Under the pieces are notes generated by a model. The model saw only the letters and a list, made by a program, of their open reading frames with translations. It did no database searches and was not told the origin of the DNA. A stretch of 64,000 nucleotides of DNA from Escherichia phage E20. Below are positions 1,669-5,503 of this stretch, in pieces. The stretch lies in sequence record OP745616. One strand, given 5' to 3'. A program made the position numbers and the translations under genes. Numbering within the stretch: position 1 is the stretch's first letter; each line of letters starts with the position of its first letter.

Positions 1669-1850
1669 AACTTACCCAGTCCCAAGTAATATTCCTTCGC
1701 ATGGTTCAAGGTGGTTCTGCCACCAGCAACCGTAATAACAAAACCGCACAGTCTCTTAAGAAGCTGGGCTTAGTACAGTTCAATACTGGTCTTGGGTGGT
1801 CATTAACCCCTACCGGAGTAATTCAACTCAACGAATTAAAAGGTAACTAA
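1665..1850 (+). CDS. hypothetical protein
   Basis: 61-aa ORF with ATGA start/stop overlap with upstream gene, suggesting translational coupling. Confidence 0.35.
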   Translation: MKLTQSQVIFLRMVQGGSATSNRNNKTAQSLKKLGLVQFNTGLGWSLTPTGVIQLNELKGN

Positions 1851-2177
1851 ATGAAAACTTTAATTGCTGTTGCTGTAGTAGCTTTATCAGTTCTGTCATT
1901 CGGTGCTCAAGCATCTAGTCGTGCAACCTTGCTGGAAGCTGCTGCTGATTACAAAGCTAATAATACAAACTTTGTGAACCAGGGTTACTTCATGGGCATG
2001 GTTACCATGGGGGTGGAAGCAGGAAAGAACTGTGTACCTGACGATATGAAGTTAGGGCACATTTTTGACAGAGTGGCTTCTATTATTCTGTATGACCGAA
2101 AGGTTAATGCAATGAAAGTACCTTCAGACATGGTTCTGTTAGCGATTGATACAGCGTATCCCTGCGTTAAATCTTAA
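1851..2177 (+). CDS. secreted/periplasmic small protein with cleavable signal peptide
   Basis: N-terminus MKTLIAVAVVALSVLSFGAQASS is a classical Sec signal peptide (AQA-S cleavage motif); two Cys in mature part. Confidence 0.5.
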   Translation: MKTLIAVAVVALSVLSFGAQASSRATLLEAAADYKANNTNFVNQGYFMGMVTMGVEAGKNCVPDDMKLGHIFDRVASIILYDRKVNAMKVPSDMVLLAIDTAYPCVKS

Positions 2178-3271: not shown

Positions 3272-4447
3272 ATGAACCAGATACCTCAGCACACACTTAG
3301 TGATGAACAACTCATGCGCGAGTATGACCGTATTCAGGCCCAAGCTTTCCTAGGCAAGTCTGCTGCGTTTTTTGGTTCATTGCTGTGTAGTCTTAAGTTC
3401 TCATGGAATCGTGAGGATTGCCCCACTGCATGTACTGACGGAATAGAACTCCATTTCAACCCAGACTTCTTTGTCTGGATGTGCCCTGATGCAAGAGAAA
3501 CAGTGCTAATGCACGAACTCTGGCATGTGGCATATCTACATGGCATCCGTTGTGGAAGCCGTGACCCGGAAGTCTGGAACCAGGCATGTGACCACTTCAT
3601 TAACCTTCAGTTAGAAGAAGACGGTTACAAGTTCACTGGTATCGACAAAGGCATTTGCAAAGACCCTCAATATAAAGGATGGGTTGAAGAAGACATCTAC
3701 GATGACCTGATGAAGAACCCTCAGAAAAGGCAGAAGCCGTCAGGGGGTGCTGGAGCAGGTCTTGCTGGCGACATGAAAGCTCCCTCTTCGGGGCAGTCCC
3801 AGGGTGCTGTTGTCAACAACGTAGTACGTGCAATGCAAAGCCAGAAGATGGCTGGTGGAATAATGCCCGGTAAAGGTGCTGGTCGTATGGAAGAGGTTAT
3901 TACCCAATTCCTTAAACCAGTAGTTCCATGGCAGGAAGTCCTGCTGAACTTCTTTACCGACATTGATGACACACACTATACGTGGGCCAGACCTAACCGT
4001 CGTTTTACTGACATCTATCTACCATCACTGGAAGATGATGAAGGTCGTTTACGACACCTAGCTTACTTTGAGGATGTATCTGGTTCTATTAGTAATTCTG
4101 ACTCTCTGCGTTTTAACTCAGAGGTTGCCTACGTTAAGAGCCAGTTCAATCCTAAGAAGATGACCCTTATTACCTTCGACGATATTATCCAAGAAGAAAT
4201 AGACATCACTGAAGAAGATACTTTTGAAGAGATTAAGATTACTGGTCGTGGTGGTACAAACCTTGAACCAGTGCGTGAATGGATTATTAAGAATAAGCCA
4301 ACCGCTGCAATCATATTCTCCGATATGTATGTTCGTCCTATGGAAGAATTACCATTTGATATCCCTATCATCTGGTGTGTTCTGAATAATCCCAATGCTA
4401 CCGTACCTTTTGGGGAGGTAGTTCATATCCCTAAAGGAATGAAATAA
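3272..4447 (+). CDS. putative metallopeptidase-like (HExxH) / VWA-like partner of the AAA ATPase
   Basis: ORF frame 3038..4447; ATG at 3272 directly after upstream stop; HELWH zinc-binding-like motif; overall resembles DUF2201/CoxE-type proteins paired with MoxR. Confidence 0.5.
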   Translation: MNQIPQHTLSDEQLMREYDRIQAQAFLGKSAAFFGSLLCSLKFSWNREDCPTACTDGIELHFNPDFFVWMCPDARETVLMHELWHVAYLHGIRCGSRDPEVWNQACDHFINLQLEEDGYKFTGIDKGICKDPQYKGWVEEDIYDDLMKNPQKRQKPSGGAGAGLAGDMKAPSSGQSQGAVVNNVVRAMQSQKMAGGIMPGKGAGRMEEVITQFLKPVVPWQEVLLNFFTDIDDTHYTWARPNRRFTDIYLPSLEDDEGRLRHLAYFEDVSGSISNSDSLRFNSEVAYVKSQFNPKKMTLITFDDIIQEEIDITEEDTFEEIKITGRGGTNLEPVREWIIKNKPTAAIIFSDMYVRPMEELPFDIPIIWCVLNNPNATVPFGEVVHIPKGMK

Positions 4448-4953
4448 TGGTTGTTAATGGTAATTCTCTATACCGTTCATCTCAATTGCTGGACATCCCA
4501 GACCATAAAGTATCCAAGCATGGTGTAAGTTATGGATTAGGTGAAGCCGGTTATGATATTCGTATCAAACAAGATATCACTTTCTATCGCTTATTCGGGT
4601 TGATTCCAATGGTGAAGACTGTCGATGCTGGGGTTGTTAAACGCCACTTCGGTAAATTCGCATTGGCTTCAGCAATTGAGAAGTTCAACATGTCCCCATC
4701 CTGTGTAGCTATCGTTCACGATAAGTCTACATGGGCAAGACGTGCATTATCAGTGTTCAATACTGTAATAGAACCAGGATGGAAAGGGTATCTTACTCTC
4801 GAACTGGTCTATCATGGTCGTAAGAAACTGCATATCCCGGCTGGTGCTGGGATAGCTCAAGTATTATTTCATCTGGTTCAAGAGCCTGCTAATTACAATG
4901 GCAAGTATCAGAACCAGGAAGACAAACCAGTATCTGCTAGACCTTCAAAATAA
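4447..4953 (+). CDS. dcd: dCTP deaminase/dUTPase-fold protein
   Basis: 168 aa; motifs GYDIRI and VIEPGWKGYLTLEL resemble the dCTP deaminase beta-barrel signature; ATGA overlap with upstream gene. Confidence 0.5.
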   Translation: MVVNGNSLYRSSQLLDIPDHKVSKHGVSYGLGEAGYDIRIKQDITFYRLFGLIPMVKTVDAGVVKRHFGKFALASAIEKFNMSPSCVAIVHDKSTWARRALSVFNTVIEPGWKGYLTLELVYHGRKKLHIPAGAGIAQVLFHLVQEPANYNGKYQNQEDKPVSARPSK

Positions 4954-5181: not shown

Positions 5182-5210
5182 ATAGCCCAGCATAGTTGGG
5201 CTATTTGTGA
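5182..5210 (+). terminator. rho-independent terminator (weak)
   Basis: stem atagcccag/ttgggctat then ttgtg. Confidence 0.35.
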
Positions 5211-5242
5211 AGAAACTAACTCAACCCCACATAGGAACTATC

Positions 5243-5503
5243 ATGGAATCTTTAGCAGCAATCCTTATTCTGTTATTTGCACTAGCTGTATACCTTATCC
5301 CTACTATTATTGCTTTTGCACGAGGCCATGCCTCTAAGTGGGGAATTGGTGTACTCAATATTGTATTAGGCTGGTCTTTGGTCTTCTGGGTAGTAGCACT
5401 GATTTGGTCACTGTCTAATAAAGGACAGTCTCAGACTACAATCGTTAACGTTGGTAGTGGGAACCAATACAACGTGTCTCAAACGAGCCAGTCTGATAAG
5501 TAA
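5243..5503 (+). CDS. superinfection immunity (Imm-like) small membrane protein
   Basis: ORF frame 5207..5503; ATG 5243 with RBS aggaac; sequence YLIPTIIAFARGH...IGVLNIVLGWSLVFWVVALIWSL matches the two-TM Imm_superinfect pattern. Confidence 0.55.
   Translation: MESLAAILILLFALAVYLIPTIIAFARGHASKWGIGVLNIVLGWSLVFWVVALIWSLSNKGQSQTTIVNVGSGNQYNVSQTSQSDK

Follow-up and report, generated by a model that had tools for sequence, protein, structure and literature searches.

We found that gp17.3, a small gene in the 64,000-nucleotide stretch of Escherichia phage E20 DNA analyzed here (sequence record OP745616; called the window), encodes a divergent member of the Rap1a/"Tai4a" family, with the fold class of Srikannathasan et al. 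(PMC3852654) and not that of canonical Tai4. This assignment is solid, and we consider it highly probable that gp17.3 is a periplasmic Rap1a-family protein. Rap1a/Tai4a proteins block Tae4/Ssp1-type peptidoglycan endopeptidases of type VI secretion systems (T6SS) in the periplasm (PMC3852654, PMC3695027). By analogy, we tentatively read gp17.3 as a periplasmic orphan that inhibits a peptidoglycan hydrolase entering from outside, with a T6SS amidase as the most likely target; taken as a whole, this proposal is close to an even call and slightly short of one.

The phage belongs to the G7C-like, N4-type podophages (Schitoviridae, Enquatrovirinae, Gamaleyavirus); over 1.9 kb, it shares 98% identity with vB_Eco_F22. 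The gene, whose locus is named gp17.3 in phage G7C, was picked out by a sequence-only reading as coding for a secreted small phage protein that might act in exclusion, lysis inhibition, or receptor masking.

Gp17.3 is a divergent member of the Rap1a/Tai4a family

The best Pfam match of gp17.3 was Rap1a (PF18602), over residues 44 to 105 (E value, 0.002). With 18.9 bits, the window protein falls under the gathering cutoff of this Pfam family (27.7 bits); the allele at the same locus of Shigella phage Moonfish passes it with 29.6 bits. PDB sequence searches with the single protein and with a close-family profile gave no matches. The widened profile A2 reached Tai4 and Rap1a in the PDB, weakly, with Agrobacterium tumefaciens Tai4 (AtTai4) as the best match (E value, 0.012). 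An NCBIfam scan returned signal-peptide-level noise only (YbiJ and YhcN leaders).

A word-indexed search of 5.8 billion clusters yielded 107 relatives, none of which carries a bacterial name; the few with names belong to Escherichia phages, and contigs of phage size (about 70 kb) carry many of the relatives. When 1.84 billion representatives were searched exhaustively with the phage-family profile, only 17 matches were obtained. These were further N4-like phage proteins and then the bacterial Rap1a members P0118 to P0122 (E values, 6e-5 to 4e-4), which themselves score 53 to 67 bits on Pfam Rap1a. P0115 and P0123 from the same search are repeat proteins (PPR; 4x repeat) and were discarded as false positives. 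A contig search with the bacterial relative P0118 gave three partial matches, which were uninformative. Direct comparison of the phage-only profile with the bacterial Rap1a profile by hhalign resulted in a probability of 98.9% (E value, 1e-17; 106 columns), a score to which the leaders add; the Pfam and PDB-profile matches lie wholly within the mature domain.

The profile alignment pairs both cysteines of the phage protein with the two that form the disulfide in Rap1a (Cys78-Cys122) and in AtTai4; the stretch between them is aligned without gaps, and their spacing of 44 residues is that of Rap1a. Furthermore, Y46 and G49 correspond to Rap1a Tyr64 and Gly67.

The structure prediction that the sequence-only reading had called for gave a confident AlphaFold2 model (mean pLDDT, 86; 87 to 98 over residues 21 to 100) with about five helices after the leader. 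Foldseek assigned it a Rap1a/Tai4a-type fold: seven Tai4/Rap1a chains were on top, with probabilities of 0.75 to 0.99, and all others were at or below 0.15. The scores of YmgD and HdeA were approximately half of those of Tai4/Rap1a. The canonical Tai4 fold (Salmonella, Enterobacter) was absent among the structural matches, and the canonical Tai4/Rap2a helical fold was rejected for gp17.3. T4 Spackle (Sp) was also rejected as a relative, with neither homology nor fold similarity found.

Signal peptide and mature domain

In agreement with the sequence-only reading, gp17.3 starts with a predicted Sec signal peptide, called from hydrophobicity and the -3/-1 rule, which comprises residues 1 to 21 (MKTLIAVAVVALSVLSFGAQA; 1851..1913, plus strand, as are all gp17.3 features given here). 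It consists of the n-region M-K, a 14-residue h-region (LIAVAVVALSVLSF; mean Kyte-Doolittle value, 2.81), and the c-region GAQA; a search for a lipobox in the leader found none. The -3/-1 rule places cleavage after A21 (A19-Q20-A21 before S22, that is, AQA before SS), and therefore the signal string given in the sequence-only reading takes in the first two mature residues. In 100 close sequences, the A-x-A motif is conserved, with A21 present in 100% and A19 in 92%. A Sec leader is present across the gp17.3 alleles, and its 5' part remains conserved even in alleles with an exchanged mature domain. In the AlphaFold2 model, the leader is an N-terminal helix of low pLDDT. Relatives in the family have experimentally cleaved leaders (PMC3852654, PMC3695027). 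The signal peptide is thus predicted from rules, from A-x-A conservation, and from homology to such relatives.

The mature helical domain with the Rap1a/Tai4a fold (1914..2174) has 87 amino acids (aa) and 9.5 kDa; the domain of about 85 aa with cysteine that had been proposed was slightly too short, and its cysteines number exactly two. These are C61 (codon TGT, 2031..2033) and C105 (codon TGC, 2163..2165; in the conserved C-terminal AYPCxKS). The former is aligned to Cys78 of Rap1a, the first disulfide cysteine of Rap1a and AtTai4, and the latter to Cys122, the second one. Both are invariant: all 100 close sequences and all distant relatives have them. By analogy, a C61-C105 disulfide would be expected in gp17.3.

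Between the leader and C61, codons 44 to 53 (QGYFMGMVTM; 1980..2009) encode a near-invariant helix (mean entropy, 0.04 bits) that is aligned to alpha2 of Rap1a (R62-A71). Alpha2 is the main dimer-interface helix of Rap1a (PMC3852654), and gp17.3 may likewise form a dimer. Codons 64 to 71 (DDMKLGHI; 2040..2063) encode a hypervariable loop, which the ungapped alignment between the two cysteines makes the equivalent of Rap1a S81-T87. In Rap1a, this loop plugs the active site of Ssp1, with Gln84 set against the catalytic His (PMC3852654). The phage loop has the same length as that of Rap1a and different residues.

The gp17.3 gene is real and under purifying selection

The coding sequence (1851..2177) comprises 108 codons, of which the first is ATG, and a TAA stop codon. 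It is preceded by a Shine-Dalgarno-like AAGGT read from the sequence (1840..1844; 6 nucleotides 5' of the ATG), and its ATG directly adjoins the TAA stop codon of gp17.2 (1848-1850), a junction that suggests translational coupling. The downstream neighbor begins at 2212. The protein is 100% identical to F22_0027 of vB_Eco_F22 and 93% identical to G7C gp17.3, and PHROGs assigns it to phrog_11132, of unknown function.

In line with the claim of the sequence-only reading that the protein is phage encoded, gp17.3 is present in 56 phage records, always at full length and with the same start and stop. Across 13 phages, dN/dS is about 0.16 to 0.20, indicating purifying selection. Because of this constraint and the conserved length, gp17.3 is, by sequence criteria, a real, expressed-type coding gene, far above chance. 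The sequence-only reading had left room for a fragment of a larger gene. We consider the idea of a chance open reading frame (ORF) or of a nonfunctional piece of a larger gene vanishingly improbable and regard it as excluded: nothing was found in its favor, and against it stand the 56 full-length copies, the dN/dS of about 0.2, the confidently predicted fold, the ribosome-binding site of its own, and the tight gene boundaries, with the upstream stop codon abutting.

Gp17.3 is a genus-wide locus with exchangeable alleles

The 56 records with gp17.3 are all labeled as Escherichia, Shigella, or Klebsiella phage or as Gamaleyavirus, and gp17.3 lies between gp17.2 and gp24 at every locus examined. 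For N4, no homologue was found by tblastn of the phage collection or with the family profile, which was run on the N4 gp16-gp33 region only. Remoter versions are present on uncultured N4-like phage contigs, beside AAA (250 aa, preceding) and DUF2201 genes; a related-locus search with alignment A1 gave only 4 IMG/VR loci. Additional Rap1a-domain proteins were observed in uncultured Caudovirales (BFVD A0A6J5LJN0, A0A6J5KWX0, and A0A6J7W580). Together with the N4-like contigs, they suggest that the fold may extend in phages beyond Gamaleyavirus.

The divergence of gp17.3 is confined to the gene. Compared to St11Ph5, gp17.3 is 37% identical and the flanking proteins are 87 to 97% identical; compared to Moonfish, the values are 50% and 85 to 97%, respectively, with gp17.2 at 87 to 97% and gp24 at 96 to 97% over both comparisons. 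The phiG17 protein is 59% identical to the window allele. In a sliding DNA comparison, identity was 90 to 100% until approximately codon 10 of the leader and 90 to 100% again from the AYPCxKS codons; it fell to 33 to 60% only between these points, in the region coding for the mature domain. These sharp identity edges argue that the mature domain acts as an exchangeable cassette. The genus keeps gp17.3 at one fixed locus, where at least four or five exchangeable and deeply divergent alleles occur.

Variability is concentrated in the loop. Among the 100 close sequences, no 7-residue window of the mature protein varies more than residues 64 to 70 (permutation P, 4e-4). Positions matching the effector contacts of Rap1a are also more variable than average (0.71 versus 0.39 bits; P, 0.024), in a rough test whose mapping comes from a remote alignment. 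In the common allele group, gp17.3 has about double the synonymous divergence seen in gp17.1 and gp17.2, and in segment 59-71 both pN and pS are raised. A test for positive selection found none, with a dN/dS of about 0.2 and a variable loop that has a high dS as well. Since the loop is raised in synonymous and nonsynonymous divergence, the diversity of gp17.3 looks like mosaic ancestry, that is, recombination of old alleles, and not like demonstrable positive selection.

Proposed function and its alternatives

According to our proposal, gp17.3 would be synthesized in the middle phase and exported by Sec, cleaved after A21, and then oxidized to form the C61-C105 disulfide. It would fold into a small five-helix protein of the Rap1a/"Tai4a" type, which would probably dimerize via the invariant QGYFMG helix. 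As Rap1a does with Ssp1 and AtTai4 with AtTae4, it could then bind a Tae4-type papain-like peptidoglycan amidase (a DL-endopeptidase for gamma-D-Glu-mDAP) in the periplasm, where the loop after C61 would sterically block the active site of the enzyme. The target would come from outside and would most likely be a T6SS effector injected by neighboring Enterobacteria. The sacculus of the infected cell would thus be kept intact until the phage's own lysis. That gp17.3 inhibits a peptidoglycan hydrolase is slightly favored, and that its specific target is a T6SS effector is somewhat doubtful. We regard as still more speculative the broader idea that N4-like coliphages carry a swappable library of orphan T6SS immunity cassettes, whose products, exported to the periplasm, would render the infected cell temporarily immune to peptidoglycan amidases used against it by neighboring bacteria.

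An external target is suggested by the content of the phage. Tae4, NlpC/P60, and CHAP domains were looked for in 17 late-strand proteins (virion proteins, virion RNA polymerase [vRNAP], tail spikes, portal, and lysis cassette), and none was found; likewise, these 17 proteins contain no peptidoglycan hydrolase other than the GH108 endolysin. Since no Tae4-type enzyme was detected in the phage, the target should come from outside. The neighbors of gp17.3 are gp17.2 and the AAA ATPase gene gp24, with no adjacent Ssp1/Tae4-type effector or T6SS locus; gp17.2 is unlikely to be an effector, as its size of 61 aa argues otherwise. To our knowledge, T6SS effectors of neighboring bacteria are the only known targets of the Rap1a fold. 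Moreover, swapped divergent cassettes would be expected of a specificity determinant that faces diverse targets, and they therefore fit the proposal. Orphan Rap1a-type genes, explained by arms-race logic, occur in potential victim bacteria (PMC3852654).

Several points weigh against a T6SS inhibitor. Both inhibition and the identity of the target are deduced from the family, and the phage proteins are distant from cellular Rap1a (about 27% identity), with no close bacterial donor among 15 billion proteins. In such an old and distant family without a close donor, specificity may have drifted to another target. Rap1a-type immunity is highly specific, yet no candidate cognate effector was identified, and contact residues were mapped through a remote alignment. 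Furthermore, dN/dS is about 0.2 in the common allele group, and the loop is raised in synonymous divergence too. Finally, T6SS strikes on an infected cell may be infrequent within a latent period of tens of minutes.

The sequence-only reading had considered a periplasmic protective factor, and this broad idea is compatible with our results; its three named functions were not specifically supported. Nothing was found in support of receptor masking. Exclusion is a live rival to T6SS immunity: like T4 Spackle, gp17.3 could provide superinfection exclusion, or protection from lysis from without, by inhibiting the wall hydrolase in virions of other or related phages. Accessory genes occupy the gp17-gp24 interval, a slot which in N4 contains gp18 (PF17420, P22 gp17-like exclusion), gp19 (membrane protein), and gp20 (SPFH/Band 7 lipoprotein); St11Ph5, U1G, and PGN829.1 carry an extra P22 gp17-like exclusion gene (PF17420) there, so that exclusion and envelope proteins are at home in this slot. 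In addition, gp17.3 is a middle-phase and periplasmic protein, and cassette-like alleles would fit a conflict with diverse competitors. The same phage also encodes a T4 Imm-like protein (5207-5503, plus strand; Pfam PF14373, 61 bits), a homologue of the membrane protein for superinfection immunity, whose start annotated in relatives is an internal ATG (MESLAAIL...). Together with gp17.3, the Imm homologue suggests that the phage invests in envelope-level protection. We nevertheless consider exclusion by gp17.3 unlikely, because all characterized members of the Rap1a fold inhibit T6SS Tae4 effectors and because no peptidoglycan hydrolase was found in the scanned virion proteins of the window phage. 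In line with this, ejection proteins of N4-type phages contain no recognizable peptidoglycan hydrolase (PMC13434306). Self-exclusion would therefore be without a visible target.

Two other explanations place the target inside the infected cell. The Rap1a fold may have been repurposed to act on a host periplasmic protein (e.g., MepS, MepH, NlpC, or YafL) or may have a noninhibitory chaperone or stress role. The host NlpC/P60 enzymes share the papain-like catalytic fold with Tae4, and the long divergence inside N4-like phages with no close cellular relative would fit such a change. This explanation leaves the 37 to 59% identical alleles in phages of the same host unexplained, since the host enzymes are near-invariant in E. 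coli, and the YmgD/HdeA scores are about half those of Tai4/Rap1a; we find it quite unlikely. Even less probable is that gp17.3 regulates the phage's own lysis as an anti-endolysin or lysis inhibition factor restraining the signal-anchor-release (SAR) endolysin in the periplasm. A periplasmic location and an inhibitor-type fold would suit this role, and delayed lysis is typical of N4-like phages (preprint 10.1101/2025.11.12.688109), but the endolysin is a GH108 muramidase and not a Tae4-like cysteine peptidase. It is 95 to 99% identical across Gamaleyaviruses whatever the gp17.3 allele (37 to 100% identity; 37 to 59% for the divergent alleles), with no covariation. Moreover, the lysis cassette (pinholin, regulator, GH108 SAR endolysin, and spanins) is located about 50 kb off, on the opposite strand and in another transcription class, which agrees with the sequence-only reading of gp17.3 as a non-lysis gene and speaks against its suggestion of a lysis inhibitor. 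N4 itself shows lysis inhibition, yet it has no gp17.3 homologue by the searches described above, and the mutations affecting its lysis inhibition lie in gp61, gp63, and the terminal repeat (preprint 10.1101/2025.11.12.688109).

Genomic setting of gp17.3

The early/middle strand carries gp17.3, which follows the RNAP2 genes and the Hoc-like gp17. A strong terminator-like hairpin was detected 3' of gp17 by a terminator scan (1071-1093, with a T-run to 1101; plus strand; 9-bp stem with 6 GC pairs and a T7 run), and this hairpin (1071-1101) corresponds to features annotated in G7C and PhAPEC7. Beyond it lies a middle-gene unit with ORF86, gp17.1, gp17.2, gp17.3, and gp24 to gp27. The block around gp17.3 contains two small membrane proteins, gp17.2, the gp24 AAA ATPase, the gp25 DUF2201/VWA protein, a dCTP deaminase, and ThyX. 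On the plus strand, an 86-aa membrane protein (1158-1418; phrog_26763), which is present in F22 and CU10EC and not in G7C, is followed by the transmembrane protein gp17.1 (1480-1668) and by gp17.2 (1665-1850; 61 aa, no signal peptide, phrog_7665).

Some observations concern the downstream genes. An HNH homing endonuclease, annotated as a phage intron, interrupts the gp24 ATPase gene of U1G. Gp25 (3272-4447, plus strand) combines DUF2201_N (putative metallopeptidase) with a VWA-like DUF2201 and forms a MoxR-VWA-like pair with the preceding gp24. It is mislabeled "HNH endonuclease" in several GenBank and RefSeq records, and its start at GTG 3038, inside gp24, in the mechanical ORF list is an artifact. 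The dCTP deaminase gp26 (4447-4953, plus strand) is 45% identical in PhAPEC5 and in one IMG/VR contig, with neighbors at 95 to 99%; by these identities, gp26 is a second allele replacement within a conserved frame.

Novelty and implications

The assignment of gp17.3 to this family is not new. In UniProt, the orthologues of SP5M (96% identical) and Bp4 are entered as "Rap1a immunity protein domain-containing protein," and a few GenBank records label orthologues "Tai4" or "Rap1a" (e.g., "Tai4" in UE-S5b and PBM-3), while most read "hypothetical protein." Our search of the published literature found no paper on a phage-borne Tai4 or Rap1a, and the genome papers of UE-S5b and PBM-3 do not mention a Tai4 gene. 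New here are the Tai4a fold class, the orphan status, the genus-wide fixed locus, the cassette hypervariability centered on the equivalent of the inhibitory loop, and the exclusion of the endolysin as a partner.

T6SS immunity proteins are usually viewed as bacterial self-protection, and orphans are known on chromosomes and integrative elements. It is plausible by analogy, though unproven, that a lytic phage equips its host to resist T6SS attack. If true, it would directly link phage infection at the molecular level with interbacterial warfare, with alleles tracking the effector repertoires of gut communities, and it would bear on the performance of phage therapy strains in dense, T6SS-armed gut communities. 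The alleles would also represent a natural panel of small Tae4 inhibitors with differing specificities. If amidases are really neutralized, phages would invest in protecting the cell they occupy from other bacteria until the latent period ends. If the target is instead the lysin of another phage or a host enzyme, gp17.3 would be the first case of a Rap1a fold used outside T6SS. Both possibilities are cheaply testable, as the protein is small and toxicity rescue assays are established.

Comparison with known systems

The closest parallel is Rap1a itself (SMA2260 of Serratia marcescens; PF18602; PDB 3ZFI and 4BI8), the founding "Tai4a" immunity protein. Gp17.3 shares with it a Sec leader, a mature domain of about 90 to 100 aa with five helices, a mid-chain cysteine and a C-terminal "PC" motif with the 44-residue spacing (a disulfide in Rap1a), and a conserved "xYxxG" helix that matches the dimer helix. 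Unlike in Rap1a, the identity in structural alignments is 9 to 12% only, the Ssp1 contact residues are not conserved (Gln84 aligns with K67), and the carrier is a strictly lytic phage that has neither an Ssp1/Tae4 gene next to gp17.3 nor a T6SS cluster. A. tumefaciens Tai4 (PDB 6IJE; Tae4 complex, 6IJF) is the best PDB profile match, with both cysteines aligned. It differs in that identity is about 15% and in that its gene, unlike the orphan phage gene, is the cognate one beside the effector within a T6SS locus. The canonical Tai4 proteins (Salmonella STM0278, Enterobacter cloacae Tai4, and Rap1b/Rap2a/Rap2b) are small periplasmic helical dimers with a disulfide that block the Tae4 active site (PMC3695027, PMC3852654); the same job and logic are proposed for gp17.3.

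Among orphans, gp17.3 resembles the Rap1a-type ESA_03939 of Cronobacter sakazakii (PMC3852654), an immunity-type gene without an effector that protects a potential victim. It also resembles the acquired interbacterial defense clusters on Bacteroidales mobile elements in being an orphan immunity-type gene with diversified alleles and arms-race logic. In contrast to these bacterial orphans, the carrier is a virulent phage and not a chromosome, integrative element, or prophage, and any protection would be limited to the latent period, in the service of the virus. A phage parallel is offered by T4, in which Spackle (Sp), a small, Sec-exported, helical periplasmic protein made early, inhibits the gp5 lysozyme of superinfecting T4. 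As in the T4 Sp/Imm pair, an Imm homologue is present in the window phage too.
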